A stretch of DNA of 64,000 bases from Spirochaetales bacterium. Its GTDB lineage: Bacteria; Spirochaetota; Spirochaetia; SZUA-6; JAFGRV01. The notes beneath the pieces are model-generated. The model was not told the origin of the DNA and made no database searches. It saw only the letters and a program-made list of their open reading frames with translations. This document shows positions 13,970-61,813 of the stretch, one piece after another. Each line of letters opens with the position of its first letter. Position 1 is the stretch's first letter. The stretch lies in assembly GCA_016935735.1 (NCBI GenBank), contig JAFGQK010000090.1:1250-65249 (forward strand), written 5' to 3'. The translations under genes were made by a program, and so were the position numbers.

Positions 13970-14341
13970 TTATTTCTTTCTTCTCTTACCTGCTACAGTT
14001 TTTCTCTTGCCTTTCCGTGTCCGGGCATTTGTTTTTGTTCTCTGGCCCCGGACAGGTAATCCTTTCCGGTGACGGAGTCCCCTGTAGCATCCAATATCAA
14101 TGAGTCGTTTTATATTCAGAGCAATTTCAGTTCTGAGTCTTCCTTCTACTTTATAGTCATTTTCAATAACCTTCCGTAATTTATTTACTTCTTCTGCAGG
14201 AAGATCATTCATCCGTAAAATCGGATCTATCCCGGTTTTCTCACATATATTTCTGGCAGATGATCTGCCGATTCCAAAAATATAGGTGAGTGCAATATCT
14301 ATATGCTTGTTTGGAAGATCTACTCCAGCAATTCTCGCCAT
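13970..14341 (-). CDS. rpsM: 30S ribosomal protein S13
   Basis: [25 protein letters not shown]...[21 protein letters not shown]. Confidence 0.95.
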
Positions 14342-43647: not shown

Positions 43648-43720
43648 TCTTACCTCCTGAATATTATTCTTTAAAAGTAAGTTTTTCATATGGTTGTCCT
43701 TTTTTTCTATAGATATTTAT

Positions 43721-46244: not shown

Positions 46245-47372
46245 TTAAACAAATTTTGTATTATGTTTTTCGATTCCCATAATCCATGAAATCGTATTCA
46301 CAACATCCTGTCTGAATTTAAGTGCTTGTTCCGGGACATTGCGTTTTAATGCAACATAATGATGAAATTCAGCTTCACTAATGTTAATGAATTCACAAAA
46401 TTCTTTTAAATTCTTTGGGATAGTATTTTTCATGCCAAGAATTCTAATTTCTTTTTTCCCCTGCTCTCTCGTAATAAAGCCCGAGCGAATCATTTGATTA
46501 ATTTCTGTCCTTAATTCCGAGAGTTCCCTTCTAAATTCCAAATACCCTTTTATCGGCTCGATAATACAACTTGAATGTATATTGGAATTTGAGGCATTTT
46601 CCCAGCCTATTTCCTTTTCCAGTGTGTCATGCAGGTTATCTAAATTCAACCAGCTGATATAATTGGACATAGGCACCATAACCGGATAAAAGCTAACCGT
46701 AACATCCGGTTTTGTATAATATAACAAATCTCCCAGGATTGTATTGATAATATCATCCATATATTCCGGCTCGAATTCTTTCAAAGCATTAATAAAAAAT
46801 TCATTCCACAATCTGCAGAATTTAAGAAAATTCTCCTTTTGAATTCCCTGGTCCGGCATGATGAAATTATGATTTAATTCCCTTTGCCCTTCAGAAAACC
46901 CTGTAATAATCAATGGAATATTCTCTTTTATAGCCAGGGGGAAAACACCTATACTCATAAGACCCGGGCAATAACAAACCTTGGCATTTCTTTTAAAAAA
47001 GGCTTTTAACAAACGCTGCGTTTTATTCATATCCCACTTACATATAACATGTCCGGAACCTGTTGCCTTAACCGCGTTTTCCATATTCCGCCATGCTGTT
47101 TGCCTGATTAAACCATTGTCCCATGTAAATGCCAGAACCTTTACCTTTAGAATTTTTGCCATATAATAAAGGACATAACAGCTGTCTTTACCACCCGTCA
47201 ATGGTACAATCACATCGTACTTACTACCCGGTTTTTTATATTGATTGATTAGTTCTGTAAATTCCTTTTCTTTCTGTTCCCAATCATTTTTTGTTTGATT
47301 GAAATTCCTGCATTCAGTACATAATGATTCATTTTCATTTATTGTGTTTAAGCATTTTGTACATTCTTTCAT
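46245..47372 (-). CDS. PP-loop ATP-pyrophosphatase, N-acetyl-sugar-amidotransferase-like (WbuX/TIGR03573-like) with N-terminal Zn ribbon
   Basis: CTKCLNTINENESLCTECRNF followed by YDVIVPLTGGKDSCYVLYY (SGGxDS-type PP-loop). Last gene of the minus-strand cluster. Confidence 0.65.
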   Translation of the reverse strand: MKECTKCLNTINENESLCTECRNFNQTKNDWEQKEKEFTELINQYKKPGSKYDVIVPLTGGKDSCYVLYYMAKILKVKVLAFTWDNGLIRQTAWRNMENAVKATGSGHVICKWDMNKTQRLLKAFFKRNAKVCYCPGLMSIGVFPLAIKENIPLIITGFSEGQRELNHNFIMPDQGIQKENFLKFCRLWNEFFINALKEFEPEYMDDIINTILGDLLYYTKPDVTVSFYPVMVPMSNYISWLNLDNLHDTLEKEIGWENASNSNIHSSCIIEPIKGYLEFRRELSELRTEINQMIRSGFITREQGKKEIRILGMKNTIPKNLKEFCEFINISEAEFHHYVALKRNVPEQALKFRQDVVNTISWIMGIEKHNTKFV

Positions 47373-47411
47373 TGTTTTCCTCCTTAATTAAACGTATAAA
47401 TCAAACTTCTT

Positions 47412-48638
47412 TTATACTTTCTTAAAAATTAAGCTGGCATTATAACCACCTATTCCACTTGTATTATTCATACAATACAAAATATGAGCTTTTCTTGACC
47501 TGTCTTTTACATAATCCAAATCACAGAATAAATCACCCTCTTTAAAATTCCTTGTAAGATGTACCTGCTGATCTTCAAGACTCTTTACACAAACTGCCGA
47601 TTCTATGGCGCCACAGGCAGCAAAAGAATGACCGAGCATGGATTTCGTACTGTTAACAGGGATTTTAAAAGCCCGGTCACCAAACAATTTTTTTATGGCT
47701 ATACTTTCCTCCCTGTCATTCGATATCGTTGAACTGCCATGAGCATTAATATAATCGATATTACCCGGTTCAATCCCGGCATCTTTTATCGCCATCTCCA
47801 TGGAATCGATTATTCCTTTATAGGATGCATCGGTAAGACTTTCTGCATTTATAGATGATCCATAACCTTCCACAAAAGCCCTGACACGTGCACCCCGGTT
47901 TATAGCATGTTCATAAGATTCAAGAACCAGAATTGCTGCTCCTTTGCTCAGGACAAATCCCGAGCGGTCTTTATCAAAAGGCCGCATAGCAGTTTCGGGA
48001 TCTTCCTCCCTGGTACTCATATACAGACGGCTGAAACCTGAAAAGAAGGGTGCATAAAACTTATTTTCAATTCCTCCTGCAAGCATAATATTCACCCGGC
48101 CATCCTGAATCATTTTATATGCCTCCCCGATGGATTGAGTACCGCTTGTACAGGCCGAGACAATAGTGGATGCATACCCATTAAGTGAAACAATATTAGC
48201 CAGGTATGATAAATAAATATTCGGATATGTTTCCAGAAACCATTTAGGATTCCTCTGATCATAAGGTTCACCGGAATATCTGTCTGCCAAAGCAGTCCCT
48301 GTTCCGATGATAGCTCCAACCCTGTATTTCCGAGTTTCTTCAGGAAAACTGATTCCTGCATCGTCTAAGGCGTCTAAGCCGGCATAAACAAGCATTCTGG
48401 AAAGAAAATTCATTTTCTTGATTAACATTTTACTATTTCTTCCCAGTTGAAATTTATCCAGATTAAAATCAACACATAACCCTACAAGCTTCATCCCGTA
48501 TTTGATTAATGATTTATCAAAGTCCGATAATAGAGTAATCCCGTTTCTTCCTTCCAATAAACCTTTCCAGACATCTTCTATATTCGAACCTAATGGTGTT
48601 ATTATGCCAATTCCTGTAATTGCTACCCTGTTTTTCAT
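47412..48638 (-). CDS. Beta-ketoacyl-ACP synthase (KAS I/II, FabF-like), catalytically complete
   Basis: VAITGIGIITPLG, active-site IVSACTSGTQSIGEA, INAHGSSTISND, KSMLGHSFAACGAIE (Cys-His-His). Confidence 0.85.
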   Translation of the reverse strand: MKNRVAITGIGIITPLGSNIEDVWKGLLEGRNGITLLSDFDKSLIKYGMKLVGLCVDFNLDKFQLGRNSKMLIKKMNFLSRMLVYAGLDALDDAGISFPEETRKYRVGAIIGTGTALADRYSGEPYDQRNPKWFLETYPNIYLSYLANIVSLNGYASTIVSACTSGTQSIGEAYKMIQDGRVNIMLAGGIENKFYAPFFSGFSRLYMSTREEDPETAMRPFDKDRSGFVLSKGAAILVLESYEHAINRGARVRAFVEGYGSSINAESLTDASYKGIIDSMEMAIKDAGIEPGNIDYINAHGSSTISNDREESIAIKKLFGDRAFKIPVNSTKSMLGHSFAACGAIESAVCVKSLEDQQVHLTRNFKEGDLFCDLDYVKDRSRKAHILYCMNNTSGIGGYNASLIFKKV

Positions 48639-48659
48639 TATATACCTTCCATTTGTTAT

Positions 48660-49403
48660 TTATTCCTTGATCGTCTGGGTAAAGCCGCCATCAAATATTA
48701 TATTTGTTCCATTAATAAATAAATGTACATTATCTGCAAGAAGATGAATCAAACCTGCAATTTCCTCAGGCTCTGTGAACCTGGCCAATGGTATACGTTT
48801 AAAGGATCCGGGATCTGTGTACCAGGGAGCTGATTTTATCATATCAGTAGCTACAGGACCAGGGGAGATTACATAAAATCGGATACCCTTATATACTAAA
48901 GCCTGTTGTTTTGTCCATTCGATGATCATGGCTTTTGAGACAGAATAAGCACCCTGGCCTTTGCGAGGCCGTACACCGGAGATACTGCCGATATTAATCA
49001 CAACAGGATTATCCGATTTCAGCAAAATAGATTTCCATTCATCAAATACTGAAACAGCCCCAAAAAAATTTGTTTGTATAATATCATTCCAGCTATCCAA
49101 CTCAACTTCATAAAGTAAATTATCCTTCAATATCCCTGCATTATTCACCAGCAGATTTATATTATCATGAATAAATTTTTTTCGTGCTTTTTGTATTTGA
49201 TCTTTATCACGAATATCAAATTCTAATATTTTCCCCTTACCGCCAATGGAAATTATTTCAGATAAAAGTCCTTCTATATTATCATTCTTCTTCCGGCAAT
49301 TCATATAAATATAAAATCCGGTTACAGCCAGTTTCCTGCAAATGGCCATTCCAATTCCCCTGCTGCAACCTGTAACAAGTGCTGTGCGTTCATGCATAAG
49401 CAT
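48660..49403 (-). CDS. Short-chain dehydrogenase/reductase, FabG-like ketoreductase
   Basis: ALVTGCSRGIGMAI (TGxxxGxG), LVNNAGI, YSVSKAM (YxxxK). Confidence 0.85.
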   Translation of the reverse strand: MLMHERTALVTGCSRGIGMAICRKLAVTGFYIYMNCRKKNDNIEGLLSEIISIGGKGKILEFDIRDKDQIQKARKKFIHDNINLLVNNAGILKDNLLYEVELDSWNDIIQTNFFGAVSVFDEWKSILLKSDNPVVINIGSISGVRPRKGQGAYSVSKAMIIEWTKQQALVYKGIRFYVISPGPVATDMIKSAPWYTDPGSFKRIPLARFTEPEEIAGLIHLLADNVHLFINGTNIIFDGGFTQTIKE

Positions 49404-49998
49404 TATCCTCCGTACTTATTAAAAGTTCCTGGGCAGTAAGATAAGTGTCAGACTGTTCGTTAACCCATGTAATTATTTTTTCCAATTTTTCAAATTGATC
49501 CTTTATTCCGATATAATTAACAATAATTTTCTTCCGTGACAATTCAAGTGCAGCAATTTTTGTTAAAGCAATTATACCGCTTTTGAAAGTATTAATAATC
49601 ACTTGCAATGCGGGATCGTTTTCAATAATAATCAAAGGTTCCAGTATCCAGACATTTACATTGCGTTGTTGTAATAAAGTTGTATAAAAACATTTTATGG
49701 AAAGAAAAATTTTTGTAAGTATCCTGTTGACTTGTACGTATAAATTTCCATTAGTTTCCGGATCCATGGCTGAATATATAATCAAAGTCTTGAAAGGTTT
49801 CAAATTATAGATTAAATCTTTATAATTCTCTAAATGATTAAAATCCACAGTATATGTATTCGCTTCTTTACAATCTGTACAATGTAAATTTTTACCGGTA
49901 TTATCAATCAAATTAATAATTTCATATTTCTTCCCGAAAATTCGGATTAGTTCCCGGTTTTGATGATTTCCGATATAATTAATTAATATTTTCTGCAT
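49390..49998 (-). CDS. Hypothetical Rossmann/SDR-like protein lacking cofactor and catalytic motifs
   Basis: 202 aa. The spacing resembles an SDR (KILINYIGNHQN for TGxxxGxG, LIIYSAMDP for NNAG, FKSGIIALTKIAALELSRKKIIVNYI for YxxxK...VN), but the Gly motif and catalytic Tyr are absent. 14-nt overlap with the downstream SDR. Confidence 0.4.
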   Translation of the reverse strand: MQKILINYIGNHQNRELIRIFGKKYEIINLIDNTGKNLHCTDCKEANTYTVDFNHLENYKDLIYNLKPFKTLIIYSAMDPETNGNLYVQVNRILTKIFLSIKCFYTTLLQQRNVNVWILEPLIIIENDPALQVIINTFKSGIIALTKIAALELSRKKIIVNYIGIKDQFEKLEKIITWVNEQSDTYLTAQELLISTEDNAYA

Positions 49999-50041
49999 TG
50001 AGTTATCCTTCTATATTTTCAAATTAAAATTTGCAGTAAAT

Positions 50042-50905
50042 TTATTTTTCTGCCTTTATTATGGCATAAGCATTGCTTTTTACCAGATGCCTTTTTATTA
50101 ATGTATTTACATCCTTATGATTTTCAATAAAAGCTGCATGCCCATTTCCAGGTAATATGACGCACTCACAATTTTTCACCTGTTCAGCAATTTCGTTTTG
50201 ATGAATAGCAGGAAAAATATAATCATTATCACTGCCAATTACCAATACCGGGAAGGTAATTTTATTAAGAATTGAAGTGATATCCGGTGCATTTATTATT
50301 GTTTGTATAAGATATTTTAATGAAACAAGATCCCGGTTATATGCGGCATATTTCAGGTATATATCCGGCCACATGGTTGATATTTTCTCGGCATATAACC
50401 TGGAAAAATGCCAGGGATATACAAGTAAAAGCAAATCACTCAATTCCGCTCCTTCGTCTATAAGCTGTATTAATCCCTTTAGAATAATCTTAAGCCTGTT
50501 ATTTAAATAAGCACCGGTATTCAATAATACCATATTCTCTATATACTGGGGATATTGAGAGGAAAACCATAAAGCCAACATACCGCCTGATGAGTGTCCT
50601 ATTAATGTTACATGTTCAATGTTTTCCTGTTTTATAATCAATAGTATATCGTTCACAATATCGAAAAAATCGAATTGTTTTCCGGATTTATTAATGGAAT
50701 CACCGCATCCCCTGTAATCAATAAATACCATTTTATAATTTTCATGAAAATATAATTCGGATTGCTGTTTTGTCCAGGCAGAATGATCGTGATACAAACC
50801 ATTAAGAAACAATAAACAATGATCCGATATCTGATTGCCACTCAAAAAATAGCGTATTTTATGTTCATCATCTTCATAATACTTTATTAAAACTTTCTTC
50901 TTCAT
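50042..50905 (-). CDS. Alpha/beta hydrolase (Ser-Asp-His)
   Basis: HCLLFLNGLYHDHSAW, nucleophile elbow LIGHSSGGMLAL, GSDNDYIFP, PGNGHAAFIE. Confidence 0.8.
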   Translation of the reverse strand: MKKKVLIKYYEDDEHKIRYFLSGNQISDHCLLFLNGLYHDHSAWTKQQSELYFHENYKMVFIDYRGCGDSINKSGKQFDFFDIVNDILLIIKQENIEHVTLIGHSSGGMLALWFSSQYPQYIENMVLLNTGAYLNNRLKIILKGLIQLIDEGAELSDLLLLVYPWHFSRLYAEKISTMWPDIYLKYAAYNRDLVSLKYLIQTIINAPDITSILNKITFPVLVIGSDNDYIFPAIHQNEIAEQVKNCECVILPGNGHAAFIENHKDVNTLIKRHLVKSNAYAIIKAEK

Positions 50906-50906
50906 A

Positions 50907-51746
50907 TCAAACTCCGTATAATTTCAGATGTTGTTCGATTGATTTATTGATTATGTCCGATCTTTCAATATGCATGGCATGCCCCGTTTCCTTAACTGCC
51001 AGATGAATACAGTTCGGCATTTTTGAAACGATCTCATTCTGGTATTGAATGGGAAACAAAACATCATTAAGGCTTCCCAGTATGAGTGTTGGTGTTGAAA
51101 TATCTTTTATTATGCTTTTAAGATCAGGACGATTGTCCGTTGCATTAAGCAACAATTTAAAGGATTTAATATCCTTATTATATTCACTGTAACCTTTTAC
51201 TATATCGGTTTCTATCCCATTCATTTTTTCCAAATACACATCAGAATAGATCCAGGGATATAATAAAGGTAATATGTATTCGAGCCGGATTCCCTTACTC
51301 AATAAATTAAAAATCCCCTGACCAGGTTGTCTTACATGCCAGTCCACCTTTAATGTAGTACCAATAAGATTTAACGATGCGATATAATCATTGTATCTAT
51401 AGGCAAACCATAGTGCTATTACACCCCCGACACAATACGCAATAATGGAAATCTTCCTTACCTTCTCGAGCTTCAGAATCGATACTATATCACAGCATAT
51501 GTCATCGAACCGGTATCTGTTGTATGATTTTTCAATAGAATTTCCCAATCCCCGGTAATCAAAAAATATCTGTTTATAATTCCTGTAAAAATATGGGTAT
51601 CGCCCCTGTTTGCGCCAGCTCCCATATGAATTATAAACACCATTTAAGAATAGCAAGCCTTTATCCGAATCCGGGCAACCGCCGATCGAATACGATAATT
51701 TTCTTTCATTATTTACCAGATATTTTTGTATAATTCTGCCTTTCAT
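50907..51746 (-). CDS. Alpha/beta hydrolase paralogue with Cys at the nucleophile elbow
   Basis: Collinear with the neighbour (GLLFLNGVYNSYGSW, GSLNDVLFP, KETGHAMHIE), but the elbow is IIAYCVGGVIAL. The Cys codon tgt is at 51434-51432 on the minus strand. Confidence 0.75.
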   Translation of the reverse strand: MKGRIIQKYLVNNERKLSYSIGGCPDSDKGLLFLNGVYNSYGSWRKQGRYPYFYRNYKQIFFDYRGLGNSIEKSYNRYRFDDICCDIVSILKLEKVRKISIIAYCVGGVIALWFAYRYNDYIASLNLIGTTLKVDWHVRQPGQGIFNLLSKGIRLEYILPLLYPWIYSDVYLEKMNGIETDIVKGYSEYNKDIKSFKLLLNATDNRPDLKSIIKDISTPTLILGSLNDVLFPIQYQNEIVSKMPNCIHLAVKETGHAMHIERSDIINKSIEQHLKLYGV

Positions 51747-51752
51747 ATCATC

Positions 51753-52787
51753 CTACCAATCAATAAATTCTGTTGTCATACGTTTTTTCATTATTGCTTC
51801 GAAATCCTGCACCACTGTTTTATAATCGAGGTTTGGTTTTTTCCTCACAGTAAATTCATTGGCATATACAATTATCCTGTTTTTTTCATCCAATCCCCAG
51901 AAATCAGCACTCAGATCCTCTCCTTTGCTTTCCCTGTATTTAATGATGACTTTGCAATTTTTCTCTGGTGGCTGCATATTACACACAAAAAGTTTTTTGC
52001 AGTCAAATGGCAGACGGGCAACACCATCTTTTAACCAACCAAAAAAGGCCAGGTATTGTATACAGGCATCATACCCCATTGGTGAAATGATGAATGATGA
52101 TTCCATATTCCTTATATAACCTTTTTCCAGGTTACGGCAATTATATTCACCGATCATGGTTGATTTTTTTTCATCAAGTGCACAACGGCCTGTTTTACTG
52201 TGAAACAATGTCTTAAGATTAGGCAGGAAATGCTCACTATAAATGTCCTTATTGGGTACGAAGTGATAATAATTAAAATTTAAATTTTCAATACCCGGGT
52301 ATTTTATTTCTGGGAATTGATTTGAAAAAGCAATACAGCATGATGCATTCAGACATCGGCCAAGAATCATGCCGGAATTATTTGTCCTTTTTGTGATCAT
52401 TTCCAGTTCGATTTTATAAGAGTTATTTCCAGGATGTACTTTGCATAAAACAATCTCGATTTCCAGTATTAAATGGAAAGCAATTTTAAGTGGTCTTTTC
52501 ATAGAAAGGTTTTCTAATCCAATTAAAGCAAAATCATTTTTTAAATAATGTTTTCTGATCCAGAAAGCAACTTCAAGGAATATTTCCATAATCATAGAAG
52601 CTGGAACTGTTGGCATATCACCTATAATATGATCATTCACATAAAGATGCTGTCTTGCATCAATAACAATATTGAATGCAATACTTTTTTTATTATTACT
52701 CCTTGTAGTGCAATCTTTTAAATGAGGATACATATCAAATCCCGGGAATGGAGAAGATTCAGGATGATTTAAATGATTTCTATACAT
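51753..52787 (-). CDS. Hotdog-fold dehydratase-like protein (~340 aa, probable double hotdog)
   Basis: NDHIIGDMPTVPASMIMEIFLEVA resembles the FabZ/PKS-DH His-loop (H...G....P then E/helix). ATG preceded by gagaggtg. Paralogous in size and layout to the next gene. Confidence 0.55.
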   Translation of the reverse strand: MYRNHLNHPESSPFPGFDMYPHLKDCTTRSNNKKSIAFNIVIDARQHLYVNDHIIGDMPTVPASMIMEIFLEVAFWIRKHYLKNDFALIGLENLSMKRPLKIAFHLILEIEIVLCKVHPGNNSYKIELEMITKRTNNSGMILGRCLNASCCIAFSNQFPEIKYPGIENLNFNYYHFVPNKDIYSEHFLPNLKTLFHSKTGRCALDEKKSTMIGEYNCRNLEKGYIRNMESSFIISPMGYDACIQYLAFFGWLKDGVARLPFDCKKLFVCNMQPPEKNCKVIIKYRESKGEDLSADFWGLDEKNRIIVYANEFTVRKKPNLDYKTVVQDFEAIMKKRMTTEFIDW

Positions 52788-53764
52788 TTTTCACCTCTCA
52801 AATTCTTATTTTTAAAATAGCAGTCTATTTCCTTGCGTTGAAATGCCAGATACATACCTTTCTGAAGTGTTATATTTTCAATAAATCCAACAATGCAGCC
52901 GGAATCATCTTTTATATAAACAGAAATTTCCGCCTCGTTTTCAGAATCACGAATTAATCTGGTGTGGCATTCATATTTTCTCCCTGAATCAAAAGGAAAT
53001 TTAAAGCAACCATTCTTAATTCTCACCGGTAATTTTTTATAAATAGTTTCATTATCACCGGATGCTGAAATCACACTTAAAAGTGTAGAGGACTGTAAAA
53101 TACTGTCAAAACCTCTTGGCGACAGGATGAATTGCAGTCCCGGTCTTACAGAAAAATAATTATCTTCCTTGCCAATATGAAATTCTGAAACAAGTGAATT
53201 TTTATTACAATTGATTTCAAATTTACCTGTTAGAGTACGGAACAGAGGGCCATGTGTCCTGGAAAAATATTCATAATACCTGTATTTATTAATTTTAATT
53301 CCATAACCAGAATCTATCTTTGAAAATATTCCGATTTTATTATCCATATGTTTTCCCAAACATATGTCAGCCTCTGCAAAAATAGTATTTTTTCTTACAA
53401 CCTTGCCCGTAAGATCAGCTTTATTCCCCCTGATCCTGACCAGGAATCGTGAAAATTCATCTGTTTTTTCAACTAATAAGGTGTTAATTGATATACTGGT
53501 TTTTCCATCTGTATCGACATTAATTGGCCTGGATATGGTAAAAGAATTAATCAGAACCGGCCATATCATTTTTTTATTCAATAATGCACATGCTTCTATC
53601 ATAAGCTCGAGTGAAATTACTGCCGGGATTAAACATTTCCCGCCAAAAAAATGATCTTTCATAAAGGTCATCTCTTTTGATGAGAAGTCAAGGCAAAAGG
53701 TAAATTCTTTATCATTGGCAACTGTAATTCTATTTTGCCAATATTTTAAAAAATATGTTTCCAC
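52769..53764 (-). CDS. Hotdog-fold dehydratase-like protein (~330 aa, probable double hotdog)
   Basis: MKDHFFGGKCLIPAVISLELMIEA fits HxxxGxxxxP followed by the central-helix Glu. 19-nt overlap with the downstream paralogue. Confidence 0.6.
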   Translation of the reverse strand: METYFLKYWQNRITVANDKEFTFCLDFSSKEMTFMKDHFFGGKCLIPAVISLELMIEACALLNKKMIWPVLINSFTISRPINVDTDGKTSISINTLLVEKTDEFSRFLVRIRGNKADLTGKVVRKNTIFAEADICLGKHMDNKIGIFSKIDSGYGIKINKYRYYEYFSRTHGPLFRTLTGKFEINCNKNSLVSEFHIGKEDNYFSVRPGLQFILSPRGFDSILQSSTLLSVISASGDNETIYKKLPVRIKNGCFKFPFDSGRKYECHTRLIRDSENEAEISVYIKDDSGCIVGFIENITLQKGMYLAFQRKEIDCYFKNKNLRGEKCIEII

Positions 53765-53787
53765 TATTGTAACTCTCCTGATCTGTA

Positions 53788-55086
53788 TTAGCCATTGAAT
53801 TTTGAGTAGATAATAGAAGTATTTTGACCGCCAAATCCAAAACTATTCGAAAGGACATTGTATAATTTTTTTTCCTCAACCCTATTATCAGGAATATAAT
53901 AGAGATCCAATTCAGGATCCCTGTTTTCCCAGTTCCGGTTGGGATGCATTATATTATTGTTTATGCTTTTTACACATACAATGCCTTCTATGGCTGCTGC
54001 TGCCATGATCGAATGACCAATCATCGATTTTGTGGAGGAAATCGGAATGTTATATGCATAATCCTTAAATACATTTTTAATTGCCCTTGTTTCTGTTAAA
54101 TCATTCATCTTTGTCGATGTACCATGTGCATTAATGTAGTCGATCTCTCCTGTATTGAGTTGTGCCATTTCCAGAGCCTGCCTGACGGCCTTACAGCATC
54201 CCTTTGCATCCGGATCCGGGTCTGTTGACCGGAAAGCATCACTGCTGTATCCATATCCCTTGATTTCTGCAAGGATACAGGCACCGCGTTTTTTTGCAAA
54301 CTCAAGCTCTTCTATAATCAGAATACCGCAGCCGCTTCCCATAACAAAGCCACTCCGTTTTTCATCAAACGGACAACATGCTGATTCAGGGTTGGTACTG
54401 GTTGTCAGGGCAGCAATACGGGTGAACCCGATTAATGAATTCAGACTGTAATTATATGCCCCCCCGGTAATCGCTGCATCAATATACCCCTGCTTGATTT
54501 TCATAAAGGCTTCTCCTATAGCTGTATTACCTGATGCACAGGCTGTGGCAGAGCTGATTTGTGGACCCGTTATGCTGTAATTCCTGGAAACCAGGTGGTT
54601 AATACTGTCTGGATCATTAAAGAATGATCTTTTTCCAACCTGTATTTTTTTTAATAACGTATAAAATTTATTTTGATTAATGGTATTGTTTTCATCAACA
54701 CACCGGTCCAGTAAGCGGGCATATTGATCAATATATTCTACAAGGGGCATGGGCCGGTCGGCAATAAATGCCCCGGTCCTGTCTTTCTGATCCAGTTTCA
54801 AAAGATCAAGCCCGGCATTATTCAATGCGTCATACACTGCCAGGAAAAAACTCTTAACACTTTCATCTTCCGGAATTCTTTTAAAAAGAACAGATCCTTT
54901 TTCCCGGTAGATATTGTCATTAATAATTGGCATGCTTCCTGCAATGGAAGCAATACCCCCCTGCACTTTATAATCTGTTATCCTGGAAATACCGTTTTTA
55001 TTTGCCAATAAAGAATCCCACAAAACATCAACACCAAAACCAAATGGTGTAACAACACCTAAACCTGTTACCACTACTCGTTTCAT
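53788..55086 (-). CDS. Beta-ketoacyl synthase (KS-alpha-like), catalytically complete
   Basis: VVVTGLGVVTPFG, SSATACASGNTAIGEA, INAHGTSTKMND, KSMIGHSIMAAAAIEG. Its ATG overlaps the stop of the upstream KS-like gene (ATGA at 55083-55086). Confidence 0.85.
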   Translation of the reverse strand: MKRVVVTGLGVVTPFGFGVDVLWDSLLANKNGISRITDYKVQGGIASIAGSMPIINDNIYREKGSVLFKRIPEDESVKSFFLAVYDALNNAGLDLLKLDQKDRTGAFIADRPMPLVEYIDQYARLLDRCVDENNTINQNKFYTLLKKIQVGKRSFFNDPDSINHLVSRNYSITGPQISSATACASGNTAIGEAFMKIKQGYIDAAITGGAYNYSLNSLIGFTRIAALTTSTNPESACCPFDEKRSGFVMGSGCGILIIEELEFAKKRGACILAEIKGYGYSSDAFRSTDPDPDAKGCCKAVRQALEMAQLNTGEIDYINAHGTSTKMNDLTETRAIKNVFKDYAYNIPISSTKSMIGHSIMAAAAIEGIVCVKSINNNIMHPNRNWENRDPELDLYYIPDNRVEEKKLYNVLSNSFGFGGQNTSIIYSKFNG

Positions 55087-56351
55087 TTATCTGTTCCTCC
55101 CTCTTTCATCACAATACTGCATGCGCCACCAAGGTGGTCAAATGAATTAACAAGACAAACCCGGTTATGGTTGGAAATAGCCTTTTCTTTTACATAATTT
55201 AACTCCTTTTCAAAGAACAGATCCCCTGTCCTGATCAGCGGAGCGATGAAATTATAGTTCAATTGCAATAATGCATAACATACTGCAATAGCCGGCATCC
55301 CTGCCAATGTATTCCCTGTTGCGGGCTGGCAGCCTGTAATGTATGCTTTGCTTCCGTATACGGCTTTGATTGCCGCTGCTTCTGCATAATCCATCTTTTG
55401 GTATCCCCATCCATTTGCCTGTACAAAATCCACATTTTCTGCTTTAATTTTTGCATCATCAAGGGCATCCCGCATACACTTTTCATAGTGAGGAGTGATC
55501 CTGCTCCAGGATTCTTCCTTGAAGGAAGGGATATACCTGTTGCTATAGCCGATAATTTCTCCGTAGCATTGAGCGTTAGGTCTGATTGTCGCCTGCTCAT
55601 TTTCCAGTACTAACACAGCGCCTCCTTCACTTAACAGACATCCATTGCCTGTTACACTAAAGGCAGCAGAACCGGTATAGTTACCTGACAACCAGCCATA
55701 ATTTTCATTCCTTATATAAAAATCAGGATAAATCTCACCTTCTGCCCCACCGCAAAACACCCTTTCTGAACGGCCATGCTTAATCTGTAAATAACCTTCC
55801 CCTATTGCCAGTGCAGCGCTTACCATTCCATTCACAATTGTATTATTAAAACCCTTAATAGTGTGCTGGATGGATATTTGCCCACTGGTTGTATTTGGCA
55901 GCCGTGCCAGGATCCATAACGGGGGAAGATTCCTGTATCCATAATCGCCGAGTTTGGTATAATCAATCGTACCATTGCTTCTTAAACATGGAATAACAGC
56001 TTCACATAACGGCAATATACTATCCATCACCCCTCCGGCAAAGAGCATAGCATCATCTTCGCTTTGATTGATTATATCCCTGGTAAGACCTGCATCTTTA
56101 ATCGCCAATACAGCTGCAGAGCATCCAAGGATGTTCTGCCGATTCATTATTTTAAGTGCTTTTTTATCAGTTATATAATCCAATGCTTTAAAACCGGGTA
56201 CTGTTCCACTTACTTTCGGGAAATCAGTCCCCGGCCTGCTTTCAAATCGGATACCGCATAATCCTTCTTTTAAAGCTGTTATATGTTTTTCCAGTTCAAT
56301 TCCTAATGGCGACAACACCCCCATCCCTGTAACAATTACCTTATTTTCCAT
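55083..56351 (-). CDS. KS-like protein lacking the catalytic triad (chain-length-factor / KS-beta-like)
   Basis: Thiolase-fold N-terminus VIVTGMGVLSPLG. The active-site region reads NTIVNGMVSAALAIGEG (no Cys), the His motifs are replaced (VQANGWGYQKMD, GNTLAGMPA), and the gene is translationally coupled to the complete KS. Confidence 0.7.
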   Translation of the reverse strand: MENKVIVTGMGVLSPLGIELEKHITALKEGLCGIRFESRPGTDFPKVSGTVPGFKALDYITDKKALKIMNRQNILGCSAAVLAIKDAGLTRDIINQSEDDAMLFAGGVMDSILPLCEAVIPCLRSNGTIDYTKLGDYGYRNLPPLWILARLPNTTSGQISIQHTIKGFNNTIVNGMVSAALAIGEGYLQIKHGRSERVFCGGAEGEIYPDFYIRNENYGWLSGNYTGSAAFSVTGNGCLLSEGGAVLVLENEQATIRPNAQCYGEIIGYSNRYIPSFKEESWSRITPHYEKCMRDALDDAKIKAENVDFVQANGWGYQKMDYAEAAAIKAVYGSKAYITGCQPATGNTLAGMPAIAVCYALLQLNYNFIAPLIRTGDLFFEKELNYVKEKAISNHNRVCLVNSFDHLGGACSIVMKEGGTDK

Positions 56352-57498
56352 TTTCCATTTTTCCTTTATTTTGATATATGTTTATAAATTCATCCATATA
56401 TAAGGCACAGCTCCTTGTTTCTGCACCAACTGCCCGTCGTTCGAATTGAAATATTTGGCCAAATCGACCACATTTACATTTCCCTTCAAAAACAATTCTT
56501 CCAATATCACCACTAAGTATAAAACCGGGTGATGAATTATTTAACGGGTCAAATATAGCTAAAATTCCTGATTTTCCGGATAATTCTTCTTTTTCTAGAG
56601 GATTTTCGATATTCCTTATAGAAAAATAACCCCAGGGAGGGACGTGCTTCTGCTGATATTCACATTCCATTGTAAATAAATTGGATTCCGCCATTGCAAA
56701 AATATCACGAATATTAAAATTGGAAATGTTAAATATATCAGCTAATAAACCATTAAGCTCATCTCTTGTGCATAAAGGAGAATCTCCCTTTCGTTTCCAA
56801 CCGCCTATAGTAATAACCATGCTACCAGGGTCCAGGTCGAATCTTTTTCCAGGATATCTGCTTTTAATAAATTGTATAAAATCATAAATTAAAAAAGGCG
56901 CTCCAATTAGGTGACAAATTGATTTTCCTTTTTGATCCAATATTTCTTTCAGTATACGATCAAAATCGGGAGGATCCCCTGGTAGATCGATAACATAATC
57001 AAACCCACTGAAACCAACTTGCATAAAAGTAATTAATTTCATTAACCCCAATTTTGCAATATATTTAGGCGGTATTGTGAAAAACATTCCATAATCACCA
57101 ATTATCGGAAAAAATTCCCTATAAAGGGAAAGAATTGAAACAGCAATCCTGTCCAGTGTTACAATATCTTTATAGCTTATGCTGGGAATCCCGCTGGTAC
57201 CCGAACTTTCCACTTGTTGCCGGATATTTTCCATGGGAACAGTTAATAATAGCTTTCTCTCTGCTTCTATCTTAAAAGCATCAATTGGGATTAATGGAAT
57301 TTTAATTAAATCGCCATAGTTTGTAATATCACCAGGAATAATATTATATTTATTACATATTTCACGATAATTTTTGTTTGCATTATAATGATATTCAAAG
57401 GATGCTTTTATCAGTTTAAGCCGCTTATTAATTATATCATATGAGTTTTCATAAAATATTTTTCGTTCAAATATCATATTTATTAATTGATTCAGCAT
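56341..57498 (-). CDS. LuxE-type acyl-protein synthetase / PaaK-like adenylate-forming enzyme
   Basis: The N-terminal layout is typical of LuxE-family proteins (...FEYHYNANKNYREICNKYNI...IKIPLIPIDAFK...) and the phosphate-binding loop is ESSGTSGIPS. Confidence 0.65.
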   Translation of the reverse strand: MLNQLINMIFERKIFYENSYDIINKRLKLIKASFEYHYNANKNYREICNKYNIIPGDITNYGDLIKIPLIPIDAFKIEAERKLLLTVPMENIRQQVESSGTSGIPSISYKDIVTLDRIAVSILSLYREFFPIIGDYGMFFTIPPKYIAKLGLMKLITFMQVGFSGFDYVIDLPGDPPDFDRILKEILDQKGKSICHLIGAPFLIYDFIQFIKSRYPGKRFDLDPGSMVITIGGWKRKGDSPLCTRDELNGLLADIFNISNFNIRDIFAMAESNLFTMECEYQQKHVPPWGYFSIRNIENPLEKEELSGKSGILAIFDPLNNSSPGFILSGDIGRIVFEGKCKCGRFGQIFQFERRAVGAETRSCALYMDEFINIYQNKGKMENGK

Positions 57499-57611
57499 CT
57501 GTGTTCTCCTTTGCCCTATTATTCTGCCTGGTATCCTACAAAATTCATTTATTAAAATTACATATGGATTAATTCCTTTTAGTGTGTGTAATTATATCCA
57601 ATAAGGATTCG

Positions 57612-59093
57612 TTAATTGTATTTTACGGGACACCCGGTAATTGCGTTTAAGTTCTTTCCTTTCCCAACCAGTCCGGATTGTATGATTTGTTTGTATCTTG
57701 CCTTTCTTTTTTGATTTACCTTTTTTACACGTCTCTTAATTATAATGTTACGAATCTTATTGTTCGTAAAAAGAAAAAAGAAAAAAGTGGTCTTGATCAA
57801 ATTAGGAAAGATAAAAAGCTTATTTTGTATATAATATAAAAAATCTTCGCGTAACATCATGCCAAGGGATGCAATACGGTTTCTCAACATAGCATCAAGC
57901 GCCAGATGAGAATAGCACGGCAGTATTTCCCACTTCTCTGCCATGGCAGAATCTAATTCATTAACATACTGATGAATCGTCTCTGCAATGTTTGTCATAT
58001 TATTTTCATCCAGGCCCAGGTGCGCTATTGTTTTTACTCCAATTCTGGAAAAAAAATCATTAACATAACATGCAACATCATTTCCTATGATACCGCCTCC
58101 GGTTATGACAACAAATCCATACTTGGGATTTAAAAAAGGACGATGAAACAAACCATAAGCTCTTTCCATTAATGTTTTTAAATATACATCGACAAAACCG
58201 GAGGAGCTGTGTCCGATGCAAATGATTCCATCAGATGCTTCCATTTTCCGTATTATCTCATTAAACCTGTCTTTTTTCTGGAACCGGCATCCGTGACCAA
58301 TAATGGAATTGCATACAAGACAACCGGTACAAGTGCTAATTTTGTATTCTTCTATTTCAATCAGTTCTACTTTGTTTATTGAATAATTTCTTACAATCTC
58401 CACTATAGATAACGCTTCTGCATCTTTAGTGATTTTATTCCCGGTTATCACCAGTATGGATTTATTATTTCTCTTTTCCACTTTAGCTTTATTTAATTTA
58501 AAATAATTTCCGAAATGAACGGGAGAAATATAACGACGGTATGTGTCCGGGTATTTGGGGGTTGGTAAAAAATTTATTTCTATTGCATGATTTATTTTTT
58601 TAGCCAGTACTTGACAAGCTGTTTCAGTATTTTTTTCATTCAAATAACCCAATTGGGGGTTAGCTTCGGCTGAGATTTCTCCAACATAACTGAATCCCAG
58701 ATTTTCACTAACCAACCTGATTTTATCAAGTGCATAATTATCAAAGATATTAATTGATGTTACTATAGAAGCTGCGCTTTTATTCTTAAAATAATATTGC
58801 TGGGCTATTAATTTATCCAATAAATACTGTAACTTGACAGGAACATATCCCAGGTATACACCAAAAGTCCATACAATGACATCAGTAGTTTTTATTTTCT
58901 CCAAAATACTTTGGAATGCCGGTTCCGCCTCATCAGCTTGTGGGGTAAGATGCACTGTATTATTATTAGAACTGTCATTAACATTAATAAATTCATAATC
59001 ATAATTAAGAAACAGTGATAGGTACATTGCAACACCCAGACTACTGCTCCTGTTGCCCCTTGGACTTCCATTTATAAAAAGTATTTTTTTCAA
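57612..59093 (-). CDS. Tandem flavodoxin-like (NADPH-dependent FMN reductase / iron-sulfur flavoprotein-like) protein with basic hydrophobic C-terminus
   Basis: Domain 1 begins MKKILFINGSPRGNRSSS (FMN_red-like). Domain 2 begins SILVITGN and has CTGCLVCNSIIGHGC (Isf-like Cys cluster) and GFVVITGGG. The C-terminus is FFFFLFTNNKIRNIIIKRRVKKVNQKRKARYK. Confidence 0.55.
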   Translation of the reverse strand: MKKILFINGSPRGNRSSSLGVAMYLSLFLNYDYEFINVNDSSNNNTVHLTPQADEAEPAFQSILEKIKTTDVIVWTFGVYLGYVPVKLQYLLDKLIAQQYYFKNKSAASIVTSINIFDNYALDKIRLVSENLGFSYVGEISAEANPQLGYLNEKNTETACQVLAKKINHAIEINFLPTPKYPDTYRRYISPVHFGNYFKLNKAKVEKRNNKSILVITGNKITKDAEALSIVEIVRNYSINKVELIEIEEYKISTCTGCLVCNSIIGHGCRFQKKDRFNEIIRKMEASDGIICIGHSSSGFVDVYLKTLMERAYGLFHRPFLNPKYGFVVITGGGIIGNDVACYVNDFFSRIGVKTIAHLGLDENNMTNIAETIHQYVNELDSAMAEKWEILPCYSHLALDAMLRNRIASLGMMLREDFLYYIQNKLFIFPNLIKTTFFFFLFTNNKIRNIIIKRRVKKVNQKRKARYKQIIQSGLVGKGKNLNAITGCPVKYN

Positions 59094-59108
59094 TTCAAAC
59101 TCCTTTTA

Positions 59109-59549
59109 TTAGCTGATTATATTTGCATTAATTAATTTCTTAGCTTTTTTTTCATTCAATTTATAGGTTGTAAATTCCACAATATTTTTTACTTTTAATG
59201 GAATCCGTGCAGTATTTTCCACATTCTGCCTGATCTCATTTATCATCTTTTCTTTCATATGCGGGTATTCATTTCCAAGCTGCTCCAGGAATGTATCTTT
59301 GAATTCATTTTTTATTCTGCCGGCTTCATCTATATATTTGCTTGCCGGAAAATAGGGCGGGAAAATGTCCTTGGGGTTTACTTTACCAATTTGAAAATCC
59401 TTTTCCAACCTGAAACAAATATCAATAAAGTCAATGGATTCTGCTGCAAGATCATTAACAATATCCGATTCAGGTGTGATTTCGATTTCTTCATTATCCA
59501 GTCCAAGTACATCGGCTAATAATGTTTTTACCTTTTCTTCAATAACCAT
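59109..59549 (-). CDS. Acyl carrier protein domain with ~70-aa C-terminal extension
   Basis: Start set at the ATG at 59549 (GGAGG 5 nt upstream). LLADVLGLDNEEIEITPESDIVNDLAAESIDFIDICFRLEKDF matches the ACP helix I-II layout, with the Ser of (D/E)S(L/I)D as the phosphopantetheine site. First gene of the cluster. Confidence 0.7.
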   Translation of the reverse strand: MVIEEKVKTLLADVLGLDNEEIEITPESDIVNDLAAESIDFIDICFRLEKDFQIGKVNPKDIFPPYFPASKYIDEAGRIKNEFKDTFLEQLGNEYPHMKEKMINEIRQNVENTARIPLKVKNIVEFTTYKLNEKKAKKLINANIIS

Positions 59550-59990
59550 AAATACCTCCATATATCTTTTAATGTTTATTATTTACCGGCACTGATCCTG
59601 CCGGCATATCATTTCTTTGAATTTCATTACCCGTAATTTCTGACCCATTCACAATCCAGGAATTCTGTGCACAGGATTATTTCCACCTTCTCCAGGAATT
59701 CCCTATCATTTGCTTTTCTGTTTATTACATAAAGCTTTATTGATGATCATTCTTTATTAAGAGGGGGAAATTGAAGTCTTTTATAGTCGTGCAAAAAGCT
59801 GTTTTATCACAACTTTATGCTATTAACTCCCCCTGCTTATTTTTCCATAAAAATCTTCACTTCGTTATTCAGCTCCAGGCTGAATACTCTTATTTGTATT
59901 TTACTGTAGGGGTGTGAGTTTAGAAATGAAAAAAACATTATTATTCGTTAATACAAATATCTATTACCGGGATACCTGAATTTTCATGTT

Positions 59991-60025
59991 AAAAAAACAA
60001 GCCGCCATTATCCTGTAATGGCGGC
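59991..60025 (-). terminator. Rho-independent terminator after the LVIVD/dockerin gene
   Basis: The minus strand carries gccgccatta caggataatggcggc: a 10-bp stem (gccgccatta / taatggcggc, 60001-60010 and 60016-60025) followed by cttgttttttt. It lies 27 nt after the stop at 60052. Confidence 0.8.
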
Positions 60026-60051: not shown

Positions 60052-61813
60052 TTATTGCAAATTTGTCCTGATAATGATAAGCTCATAATTTGTATGCCTG
60101 CCTGGAATATATATGTATCCGCCTTCAAAAGCGACTCCACCGGCTTTCCCGGGTATTGAAATACAACCGGCTTCCACAACATCATCAGGATTGGAAATAT
60201 TAATTATCTCAATTGCTCCTGAGGATGCAAAAACATACGGGAAATTTACTACCAGACCATTTCCTTTAACATTGCTGCCAAGAACAAGGCCATCGGCTAC
60301 CAGGGGATGTAACGAATCGGTGATGTCTATTATCCGGAACAGGTTGTTTTCCTGGACAAGATAAAGATAATTTCCTTCCAGGTCAAATCCATTCATGACA
60401 GCATCATAATCAACATCAAGGTAGGTATCCAGTAAATTTACAACTTCCAATGATCCGGCAGTTACTATCTTGATTTCAGGCGAAATATTGTTTCCCAGTA
60501 CTATATTTGTATCTTTTACAACAAGATTCATCGCACCCCAGATATTAATGTCAGGAGTCACCGCGGGTGTACTGGTCGGATAGGGTGTGGGTGTCGGTTC
60601 AGTTGGTGGTATTGGTGTTTCCGTCGGGAAAGGTGAAGGTCTCGGCTGTCCGGCAGTTGAATCTGTTTCTACAGGGGACAGGGGATTGGAAATATCAATA
60701 ACAGTAATGCCCGCTACCTGTTCTGCTACATAGGCATTATTGCCGTCTATATACACATCCACAGCAGTATCATGGGTGGGAAGACTGGCTTTCAGAACAG
60801 GAGTTCCCGGATTTGATATATCGACAACTTTGAATCCGCCGGTCCCGTCTGCAATATAAATATAATTACCTTTTATCTGAAGATTATAGGGATTAACCAG
60901 GGAAAGGGAACCGGAAAGAACCGGATGTATTCCCCATGAGAAAAGCATAATGACCGGAAAGAACGATAGCATCTATTCTAAGGTTAATCGGAATGGTGTC
61001 AACCTGGACAGGATTCCCCCGATTTGATACATCGAATACAACCAGCATGTCATCGTTTACATTTACCATATAGGCATAAGACCCATAAACAACAATACCG
61101 GTTGCTCTGAATAACTCGACCCCATCTATAACCACTGGATTATCAGGTTGTGTTATATCCACCAAAAAAACCTCGTCAGTACAACCAATATAAAAATAAT
61201 TGCCATTTTTAACCATTGAATACATCGGGGGCATGGTAATTGATGTTACTACTGAAGGAGAAGAGGGATTTGATATATTGAGAACAACGAGGTTTTTATA
61301 ATCAGAGGGGAAACATGAAACATAGGCATAATTATTATCAATAACAATAATATGCTCCTCACCCGGATTATCCCCGGGAATCTCACAAAAACCTGAAAAA
61401 ACAGGATTCCCGGGTTGTGATACATCAAATACTTTAAAACTTACTTCACTGGTCATATAGAGATAATTGCCGGAAAGAACACTATTACGCCAGTTGTCCC
61501 GGTTTCCCATTTCCAGGGGCAACATTCCTGTCATTTCCACGAAAAAGGGTGCTATAGACGTGGGATCCTGCCTTGGTGTGACATCCGGGAAAGGGGTAAA
61601 TCCCAGCGGGTCCGGCGTGGGAGGTGTTGTCGGGACAGGCGTGGCCCCGGGAAATTCAGTAATTAATCCCACATAATATTGGGCAGTCAACAAGGCATCC
61701 ACTATATCGATGGAACCATCATTATTGGGGTCACCAATAAGACCATACATACCGGTAACAGAGAAAAAGAAAAAGACGGTGACATTAAGAAGCAAAAAAA
61801 CAGCTTTTTTCAT
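60052..61813 (-). pseudogene. LVIVD-repeat surface protein with N-terminal signal peptide and dockerin-like Ca-binding motif, split into two ORFs (60893-61813 and 60052-60972) by a 10-bp tandem duplication
   Basis: Signal MKKAVFLLLNVTVFFFFSVTGMYG, then GDPNNDGSIDIVDALLTAQYYVG (dockerin/EF-hand-like), PT linkers, and LVIVD repeats in both ORFs. The minus strand reads tccggttcTT tccggttcCC (plus strand 60906-60925). Deleting one 10-nt unit joins ...FLMGNTSG to SLSLVNPYNLQIKGNYIYIA in frame. Confidence 0.7.

Follow-up and report, generated by a model that had tools for sequence, protein, structure and literature searches.

Which product would be made by a tightly packed set of ketosynthase, ketoreductase, dehydratase and LuxE-type genes in a spirochaete, and does such a set belong to any pathway that has been characterised? 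The genes lie in a 64,000-nucleotide stretch of contig JAFGQK010000090.1 from a Spirochaetales bacterium (assembly GCA_016935735.1). This whole stretch is called the window below, and positions are those of the window unless another locus is named. A first-pass annotation, made from the sequence of the window, had described 13 genes as an orphan biosynthetic cluster that could not be matched to a characterised pathway, and our analyses uphold this description. No curated NCBIfam model was matched at or above its cut-off, full-text literature searches returned no description of this gene architecture, comparison with an aryl-polyene (APE) cluster was negative, and no characterised counterpart of the cluster was found. 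We propose, with a probability of roughly 0.6, that the 13 genes are one operon encoding a discrete-enzyme ('type II') fatty acid synthase (FAS)- and polyketide-like synthase, an uncharacterised variant of its family, which would work by the mechanism set out below.

The thirteen genes and their relatives

The 13 open reading frames (ORFs) are all encoded on the minus strand, at 46245-59561, and are numbered g01 to g13 in transcription order; the gene coordinates given below all refer to this strand. From g01 to g13 they are spaced by +15, +113, -11, -4, +23, -19, +6, +1, +43, -14, +21 and +39 nt, and a purine-rich Shine-Dalgarno-like run lies 5' of most of them. The coordinates and the tight packing (gaps of -19 to +113 nt) claimed by the first-pass annotation were reproduced, as was the ATGA at 55083-55086, in which the stop codon of g04 and the start codon of g05 overlap and which can be read straight from the sequence. 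Pfam and NCBIfam searches of all 13 proteins, from which our domain calls were made, gave significant family matches for 12 of these co-directional, coupled ORFs, and such an array is far beyond chance. All 13 gene-level assignments were recovered, that of g10 through a family profile compared with FabG structures. The cluster is chromosomal, since rpoB, rpoC, tuf, ribosomal-protein operons and three tRNAs are found elsewhere in the window, and an independent Logan assembly contains the cluster in identical form. SecY of the window shares its 90%-identity cluster with a protein named as from a Spirochaetales MAG, in agreement with a spirochaete host, and EF-Tu and RpoC have no other members in their 90% clusters. 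A GC-rich palindromic hairpin at 60001-60025, just 3' of the upstream LVIVD-repeat gene, and a sigma-70-like promoter site (11/12) at 46013-45986, ahead of the downstream TPR gene, fit these boundaries. In the accompanying scan, promoter-like sites were as frequent as expected from shuffled sequence and terminator-like sites were in modest excess (16, against 9.4 +/- 3.0 after shuffling), the scan as a whole being near chance level.

Three of the proteins match the N- and C-terminal ketoacyl-synt families. The product of g04 (55083..56351, 422 aa) has a full-length ketosynthase (KS) fold in which, by alignment to FabF, the Cys/His/His positions are occupied by Met, Asn and Asn, and it is regarded here as a KS-like partner of the chain-length-factor (CLF) type. 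Its presumed catalytic partner is g05 (53788..55086, 432 aa), a complete beta-ketoacyl synthase with Cys/His/His. The coupling of a KS-like protein without the triad to a complete KS, noticed in the first pass, is thus borne out by both the residues and the ATGA overlap. The third protein, g12 (47412..48638, 408 aa), is likewise a complete KS with Cys/His/His. The orthologue group of g04 comprises about 18 proteins (35-47% identity, E <= 1e-70), after which the next match jumps to 1e-45. Orthologues from related clusters are 52-64% identical to g05 and 44-64% identical to g12. In the related loci the g04-type gene always stands directly upstream of the g05-type KS gene, and the g12-type gene directly after the gene for the acyl carrier protein (ACP).

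On the FabF equivalog TIGR03150, g05 and g12 score 368 and 360 bits (cut-off 493.75), and on NF005589 they score 351 and 361 bits (cut-off 387). A neighbour-joining tree, without support values and without reference type II polyketide synthase (PKS) sequences, took in the window KSs and, from ten loci, their orthologues, as well as two KSs of the LuxE-containing locus L001 described below and 19 matches of the g04 search that include named FabFs. It contained three monophyletic cluster-specific clades (third KS, KS and KS-like), with the named FabFs as a separate group, and the window KSs fell inside the cluster-specific clades, usually adjoining genes of a Bacteroidales metagenome-assembled genome (MAG). 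The triad is missing in every member of the KS-like clade, where the Cys position holds Met in g04 and Ile, Pro, Ala, Val or Met in its orthologues, and both KS clades keep Cys/His/His. Among PDB sequences, g05 and g12 matched FabFs best (260-285 bits) and scored lower on the actinorhodin KS (1tqy), AntD and Iga11 (6kxd). To judge from these sequence comparisons, the window KSs are FabF-derived, and they appear to be neither housekeeping FabF nor part of a characterised type II PKS clade. Nesting within housekeeping FabF, which the first-pass annotation had linked to a role as the primary FAS, was not seen: the KSs form clades of their own and lie more than 100 bits below the equivalog cut-off.

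Eight gene families of the window form a syntenic core in about ten loci from several phyla, as established from the neighbourhoods of g04 orthologues, two collection scans and tblastn/blastp mapping. Core orthologues of g01, g12, g04, g05, g07, g10, g11 and g08/g09 are 22-64% identical to the window proteins (loci L012-L028). The family gene order is extended ACP, KS (g12 type), KS-like (g04 type), KS (g05 type), dehydratase (DH; g07 type), a block of short-chain dehydrogenase/reductase (SDR) and hydrolase genes, and a radical SAM (rSAM) gene. The block is arranged either as pseudo-SDR, SDR and hydrolase or as hydrolase, pseudo-SDR and SDR. This order is seen in L012-L015, L018 and L020-L028, whose hosts include Pelosinus baikalensis (JAJHJB010000068), a Bacteroidales MAG (JACABB010000029), a Deltaproteobacteria MAG (JAUVJO010000068), a 4.19-Mb assembly (OW818645.1) whose DpaA gene marks it as a Firmicute, and a number of metagenome contigs. 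Occurrence in four or five phyla implies that the cluster has been transferred horizontally. One conserved g04 peptide was matched in 4 of 185,579 species-representative genomes; although this is a lower bound that comes from a single pattern, the rarity of the family is clear.

The rSAM protein of the family is of the HemN-like kind, with ChuW/HutW as its best match (about 190 bits, under the cut-off). Its gene is present in all nine related loci that extend far enough, eight of them independent (L015 and L020 are near-identical). In the passages of a 2026 review of radical-SAM lipid enzymes that a term search retrieves, Jaw5 is the sole HemN-like polyketide/lipid enzyme (PMC13459092). Around the core of L023, three HemN-like rSAM paralogues and two extended ACPs are encoded (L023:1847-5709 and 12785-14152). 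Genes for a WbuX-like protein, an AsnB-type amidotransferase and a tandem FMN_red protein come after the core in L015/L020 and L023. L013 has an orthologue of g13 (44% identity) in this place, with genes for a LuxE protein (28%), a nonribosomal peptide synthetase/PKS and an acyltransferase as well as an outer-membrane efflux gene nearby. WbuX-like genes are thus found in three distinct relatives and tandem FMN_red genes in two. The Deltaproteobacteria MAG has genes for an ABC ATPase, an FtsX/MacB-type permease and a LolA-like protein after the core (L018:7171-10024), which suggests that a lipid is exported to the outer membrane. L024, and in the same way L026, encodes a 4HBT thioesterase, a short KS-like protein, two SDRs and a phytoene-desaturase-like flavoprotein upstream of the core (L024:1856-6327) and a 935-aa KS-containing protein downstream of it (L024:15919-18726).

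Within this family, the window cluster is best described as a rearranged, lineage-specific variant of a rare, uncharacterised cluster type. It shares the coupling of the KS-like gene to the KS gene and of the pseudo-SDR gene to the SDR gene. It differs from the family in that no HemN-like rSAM gene is present (no tblastn match at E < 1e-6 in the 64-kb window), the third KS gene, g12, stands at the 3' end instead of after the ACP gene, and a tandem flavodoxin-like gene and a LuxE gene directly follow the ACP gene. In addition, the hydrolase gene is duplicated, one copy encoding a Cys nucleophile, and an extra dehydratase gene (DH1, g06) precedes the canonical one. The accessory set had been called unusual in the first pass. 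Two of its members, the WbuX-like and tandem flavodoxin-like proteins, recur in relatives, and LuxE, DH1 and the second hydrolase are additions of the window variant.

The missing rSAM gene, together with the displaced third KS and the two genes inserted after the ACP gene, could also mean that the cluster is a decayed or incomplete remnant of an rSAM-containing cluster, either non-functional or dependent on genes elsewhere. We consider this unlikely. None of the 13 ORFs is broken, their coupling is tight or translational, and motifs are kept in the KS, ketoreductase (KR), DH, second hydrolase, LuxE and PP-loop proteins. The copy on the independent assembly is identical, and the added genes have relatives elsewhere, including DH1 itself and a natural DH1-DH2 fusion (P0288). 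These observations point to a functional variant rather than to decay.

Enzymes and proposed pathway

The first gene, g01 (59109..59561, 150 aa), encodes an ACP (PP-binding, 5.1e-07, aa 9-66) with a C-terminal extension of about 85 aa, and its phosphopantetheine Ser is present in an 'AESID' motif. The orthologues (121-159 aa, 33-49% identity) conserve the extension and are encoded by the first gene in every related cluster. The candidate loader is g03 (56341..57498, 385 aa), a LuxE-family acyl-protein synthetase (PF04443, 1.7e-44, 152.7 bits, cut-off 24.9), in which K235, R355 and C364 are kept in 111-112 of 112 homologues. The equivalent Lys, Arg and Cys of P. phosphoreum LuxE are essential for adenylation and self-thioesterification (PMC9157457). 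With these catalytic residues present, g03 would adenylate a free carboxylic acid and acylate itself on Cys364, and the extended ACP, through its phosphopantetheine thiol, or else a KS directly, may then receive the acyl group.

In its family and in its catalytic Lys, Arg and C-terminal acyl-accepting Cys, g03 resembles the LuxE component of LuxCDE, but the window cluster has no LuxC reductase (aldehyde dehydrogenase family), LuxD transferase or luciferase. Membership in the Lux fatty-acid reductase system was rejected on the missing LuxC and LuxD partners and a score of 142 bits on the LuxE equivalog NF052244 (cut-off 550), and the acyl acceptor of g03 is likely an ACP or KS, not LuxC. The nearest g03 homologue (54% identity) belongs to another KS/KS-like/ACP/DH cluster (L001:5715-11074; MAG GCA_049472295.1, contig JBLIRM010000101.1). 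That cluster encodes an SDR, a triad-less KS (Phe/Gly/Glu at the Cys/His/His positions), an ACP, a FabA/ApeI-like DH, a KS, LuxE and, at the contig end, an ICMT-family methyltransferase. LuxE-type enzymes thus recur beside KS/KS-like pairs.

Mid-distance LuxE homologues from Bacillales were rejected as relatives, because they sit in an ACP-LuxE-NifU-IscS operon that is unrelated to the window cluster. In these Bacillales (Lysinibacillus and Metabacillus-type; L004/L005:9787-15742, L002:4166-7163), genes for a small ACP, LuxE, NifU and a cysteine desulfurase form a conserved unit, followed in the Lysinibacillus version by genes for a U32 peptidase, an unknown protein and an acyl-CoA dehydrogenase. 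The unit may represent a sulfur-inserting acyl pathway; we know of no characterisation of it.

For elongation, g05 and the triad-less g04 would act as a KS/CLF-type heterodimer with malonyl-ACP as the extender, by analogy with ApeO/ApeC, the actinorhodin KS/CLF, Iga11/Iga12 and the anammox FabF pair discussed below. The third KS, g12, may serve priming or a separate elongation phase. Malonyl loading and phosphopantetheinylation would be provided by the housekeeping FabD and AcpS.

Reduction of the beta-keto groups is assigned to g11 (48660..49403, 247 aa), a FabG-like KR (adh_short 6.4e-39, KR 5.1e-12) with intact TGxxxGIG, NNAG and YxxxK motifs and 42-54% identity to its family orthologues. 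Its gene overlaps by 14 nt with g10 (49390..49998, 202 aa), the product of which has no direct Pfam or NCBIfam match. Searched alone, g10 matched the FabG structure 2uvd at E = 0.006. The profile of its nine-member family matched 2uvd at 4.3e-08, with more than 100 SDR matches and with alpha4-beta6 covered. None of the nine members has the Gly-rich TGxxxGxG motif or the catalytic Tyr, and the Lys is variable. On the FabG homology and the loss of these residues, g10 is a dead SDR, an SDR-derived pseudo-ketoreductase, which agrees with the degenerate SDR-like protein of the first-pass annotation. An hhalign comparison of the pseudo-SDR and SDR family alignments was not significant (probability 1.5%), and a single-sequence AlphaFold2 model of g10 was unusable (predicted local distance difference test, pLDDT, 33.6). 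In related loci the g10-type gene is always immediately upstream of the SDR gene, and g10 would probably serve as a scaffold for g11.

Two stand-alone double-hotdog dehydratases are encoded. The first, DH1, is g06 (52769..53764, 331 aa, GTG start), which matches PKS_DH_N at 1.2e-07 (32 bits, above cut-off) and has HxxxGxxxxP and DxxxQ motifs; a PDB sequence search with it gave no match. The second, DH2, is g07 (51753..52787, 344 aa; PKS_DH_N 1.1e-05, PS-DH 5.9e-04), with a conserved catalytic His and 'GxDxCxQ' motif. The one DH of the canonical clusters is its orthologue (25-33% identity to the DH in all related loci), and no g06-type DH1 was found in those clusters. The whole DH family is rare: an exhaustive search of 1.84 billion proteins yielded 52 representatives, about 22 of them DH1-type, that is, more like g06 than like the canonical DH. 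The fusion protein P0288 (665 aa) joins a DH1-type domain (aa 10-299) to a DH2-type domain (aa 320-650) in the same order as g06 and g07, which argues that the two window proteins work together, and they would dehydrate the chain as a pair. The chain would then stay unsaturated or hydroxylated, because no recognisable enoyl reductase is encoded.

The two alpha/beta hydrolases of the first-pass annotation were both confirmed, with one correction. They are g08 (50907..51746, 279 aa; Abhydrolase_1 8e-18) and g09 (50042..50905, 287 aa; Abhydrolase_1 2.1e-25), and share 39% identity. The nucleophile of g08 is Cys and not Ser (elbow AYCVG), Ser being present in all other aligned family members including g09. 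In g09 a complete Ser-Asp-His triad was recognised: GHSSG, the Asp and the His line up with the family, and identity to the single hydrolase of related clusters is 30-43%. These enzymes would release or transfer the chain, with the Cys-nucleophile g08 possibly acting as a transacylase.

The last gene, g13 (46245..47372, 375 aa), encodes a WbuX-like PP-loop ATP pyrophosphatase/amidotransferase (TIGR03573, 3.9e-46) with an N-terminal Zn ribbon and a TGGKDS PP-loop. The first 150 aa, PP-loop included, match the N-acetyl sugar amidotransferase 8wex at 5.7e-13. Orthologues lie 3' of the rSAM gene in L013 (44% identity) and in L015 and L023 (24-27%). In the proposed pathway g13 would activate a carbonyl group with ATP and replace O by N, giving an amide or amidine head group. 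Its family also allows another view of the whole cluster, namely that it is an acyl-modification module for a glycan, by which, for example, a nonulosonic acid or O-antigen sugar carried by spirochaete flagellin or surface polysaccharide is N-acylated or amidinated. The acyl group would then be the work of LuxE, the ACP and the FAS-like enzymes, and an acetamidino-type group that of the WbuX/PseA-like enzyme. The host is indeed a spirochaete, and genes for LuxE, ACP and 3-oxoacyl-ACP reductase occur in Aeromonas flagellin glycosylation islands (PMC7874193). We nevertheless find this improbable. Sugar-nucleotide, nonulosonic-acid and glycosyltransferase genes are absent in and beside the cluster and beside the core in five related loci, and three KSs, two PKS-type DHs and two hydrolases far exceed known glycan acylation cassettes. 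As an N-acetyl sugar amidotransferase (WbuX/PseA/WbpG) g13 falls short, the score on the WbuX model being 158 bits (cut-off 203) and the ammonia-supplying HisH/HisF-like partners (WbuY/WbuZ) being absent from the cluster, as are sugar genes.

The remaining protein of the proposed synthase, g02 (57612..59093, 493 aa, TTG start), is a tandem flavodoxin-like flavin mononucleotide (FMN) reductase with two FMN_red matches and one to Flavodoxin_2. An AlphaFold2 model from 37 homologues (pLDDT 75; predicted template modelling score, pTM, 0.78) has two alpha/beta flavodoxin-like domains and a helical tail. Its Foldseek matches are AzoR, NQO1/2, SsuE and RosB, and a PDB sequence search gave a single marginal match. 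A CxxCxxCx7C motif in the second domain is invariant or nearly so in the 37 homologues and suggests an iron-sulfur (Fe-S) site like that of iron-sulfur flavoproteins. Distant copies of g02 (23-27% identity) stand at the end of L015, L020 and L023. The closest homologues (36-43% identity) sit in unrelated neighbourhoods, as seen in three Desulfobacterota loci, and the protein family as a whole is therefore not cluster-specific. In the pathway g02 would be an Fe-S/FMN tandem reductase that supplies electrons for a redox step.

A lipid of the cell envelope, or a secreted one, is the most likely product, by analogy with the relatives, whose LolA-like, ABC/FtsX and outer-membrane efflux genes point to such a destination. 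The acyl chain, primed by LuxE and elongated by the KS/CLF pair, would be reduced only in part and then released, possibly with a nitrogen cap; an unsaturated, possibly amide-terminated lipid, as suggested in the first pass, may be the outcome. A more far-reaching reading is possible, if rather doubtful. The family could combine a free-standing type I PKS/polyunsaturated fatty acid (PUFA) reductive loop with a FabF-type KS/CLF pair and, with its pseudo-KR, KR and double-hotdog DH pair as separate proteins, be a living link from type II FAS to the architecture of type I PKS. The spirochaete variant would then be the first assembly line with LuxE-type priming, and make a new unsaturated envelope lipid in which the PP-loop enzyme has turned a carbonyl into an amide, amidine, nitrile or thio group.

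Several points weigh against the pathway proposed here. The proposed steps are derived from homology and gene order, and the cluster lacks malonyl-CoA:ACP transacylase (MCAT), phosphopantetheinyl transferase (PPTase) and enoyl reductase. The KS tree has the limits given above, being a neighbour-joining tree with neither support values nor reference type II PKS sequences. The place of g02 in the pathway depends on its position and on the distant copies in L015, L020 and L023. Besides falling below the WbuX cut-off, g13 has weak matches to the sulfur-transfer enzymes LarE, TtuA and MnmA, and it is possible that it inserts sulfur rather than nitrogen. Finally, lacking the rSAM gene, the window variant may make a chemically different product or need genes elsewhere.

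Comparison with characterised systems

The first-pass annotation had seen a parallel to APE logic alongside a different gene set, and both parts of this view stand. APE systems, which have the ApeO/ApeC heterodimer plus ApeR (PMC8358021), share with the window cluster a discrete ACP, a KS/CLF-type heterodimer with an extra KS, a KR, a dehydratase pair, the lack of an enoyl reductase and an envelope-lipid destination. In a direct comparison with the E. coli CFT073 cluster (c1186-c1204), which included tblastn, g05, g12 and g11 reached an identity of only about 30% with the KSs and the KR. In contrast to the ApeC CLF of about 240 aa, g04 is full length at 422 aa and has no match to it. The dehydratases g06 and g07 match PKS_DH_N/PS-DH and not the FabZ-like ApeI/ApeP families PF22818/PF22817, and had no tblastn match to a CFT073 dehydratase. 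The DH, hydrolase, LuxE, flavodoxin-like and PP-loop genes have no CFT073 counterpart.

The loader of the window cluster is LuxE and not an AMP-ligase. In the Pfam and NCBIfam searches, the 13 proteins gave no match to MCAT, PPTase, AMP-binding ligase or hotdog (4HBT) thioesterase, nor to glycosyltransferase, LPLAT, methyltransferase or MMPL/LolA families, which agrees with the absences listed in the first pass. Membership in the APE systems was rejected on the type of KS/CLF, the dehydratase pair and the loader, thioesterase, export and transferase set.

For the same reasons we doubt that the cluster is a divergent aryl-polyene or flexirubin-type cluster for an outer-membrane-anchored polyene pigment. 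The common KS/CLF, extra KS, KR and DH logic would suit such a product, as would the relative L018 with its LolA-like protein and ABC exporter, and g11 reaches 160 bits on the flexirubin FlxB model. That score is far under the cut-off of 340, however, as is the 25 bits on FlxY (cut-off 520), and flexirubin membership was rejected on these values; for an aryl starter, neither tyrosine ammonia-lyase nor chorismatase was found among the 13 proteins with Pfam and NCBIfam.

The nearest conceptual precedent is the FabF2/FabFmut pair of anammox bacteria. In the putative ladderane Cluster I, a triad-less FabF gene lies just upstream of the active FabF2 gene, and the two proteins form a KS/CLF-like heterodimer (bioRxiv 10.64898/2026.05.19.726425). 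Both systems are FAS-like clusters with a dedicated unusual ACP and a triad-less KS gene ahead of an active one. Both Cluster I and the relatives of the window cluster have an rSAM gene, and L024/L026 also have a phytoene-desaturase-like gene, which recalls the composition of Cluster I. Cluster I differs in its FabZ-type dehydratase and its B12-dependent rSAM, the rSAM of the window relatives being HemN-like. It also differs in lacking LuxE, hydrolases, a pseudo-KR and a PP-loop enzyme, and in its taxa. No B12-dependent rSAM (TIGR04072), phytoene-desaturase-like enzyme or amxFabZ was detected in the window cluster with Pfam and NCBIfam, and only the KS/triad-less-KS pair is analogous.

The heterodimer principle, and discrete KR and DH enzymes acting on ACP-bound chains, are also shared with ishigamide biosynthesis (Iga11/Iga12) and with the actinorhodin KS/CLF. 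In aromatic type II PKSs, the CLF has Gln at the KS-Cys position, where g04 has Met. Membership in this group was rejected, as the CLF Gln is missing, no cyclase/aromatase family was matched by the 13 proteins (Pfam), and the actinorhodin KS/CLF ranks below FabFs in the PDB search. As in type I PKS and PUFA synthases, the window cluster has a truncated dead Rossmann protein before an active KR and a double-hotdog DH of the PKS_DH_N type, but here these elements are separate polypeptides and the KSs resemble FabF, not the KS domains of type I PKSs.

That the cluster is a primary or specialised membrane FAS, for example for unsaturated fatty acids, is very improbable: although its KSs are more like FabF structures than any solved type II PKS KS and it has no cyclases or tailoring oxygenases, housekeeping membership was rejected, because the KSs stay under the FabF equivalog cut-off in clades apart from named FabFs, FabD, FabH, FabZ/FabA and FabI/K/L/V were not found in the cluster (Pfam and NCBIfam), and the distribution, as judged by the one g04 peptide pattern, is far from near-universal, the known hosts including the named Pelosinus, a Bacteroidales MAG and a Firmicute.

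A KS-CLF catalogue published in 2023 contains a large unexplored, mainly non-actinobacterial clade, and Spirochaetes and Bacteroidetes are not among the 14 phyla named there (PMC10132072). The cluster family plausibly belongs to this unexplored non-actinobacterial KS-CLF space. KS/CLF systems outside actinomycetes are a large unexplored area, and the window cluster and its relatives are a compact family within reach of experimental testing. The combination that they present is not seen in any characterised pathway: an extended ACP, three KSs of which one is dead, stand-alone PKS-type DHs that are sometimes fused together, a split pseudo-KR/KR and a HemN-like rSAM or, in the window, a LuxE loader. 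Identification of the product would add a new lipid or polyketide to those of little-studied anaerobes, among them spirochaetes, would show how a LuxE-type enzyme primes a carrier-protein pathway, and would bear on the relation of type I PKS domain architecture to discrete enzymes. At the same time this is one orphan cluster among many, and nothing so far points to a fundamentally new mechanism.

Surroundings of the cluster

Genes encoding LVIVD-repeat (beta-propeller) proteins flank the cluster on both sides, at 40786-43689, 60052-60972 and 60893-61813, and the cluster could have been inserted into an array of LVIVD genes. The two upstream ORFs (60052-60972 and 60893-61813, 306 aa each) share 80 nt and may have arisen by disruption of a single gene. 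Within the cluster, the 2-kb bin 54001-56000, which covers g04/g05, has a GC content of 42%, against 33-35% in the remaining cluster; the reason is either a distinct composition of the KS pair or a stronger constraint on its sequence.

The region 62631-63903, upstream of the LVIVD genes, was compared with the matching Logan contig (L006:1085-3260). On that contig a 507-aa ATPase (AAA_15/AAA_21/SMC_N) is followed by a 219-aa protein without a family match, and together they have the look of a defence pair, such as those with OLD or abortive-infection ATPases. At the other end of the window, a 386-aa ORF on the minus strand (8028-9188) almost wholly overlaps the start of a 1088-aa ORF on the plus strand (8113-11379), and presumably one of them is spurious.

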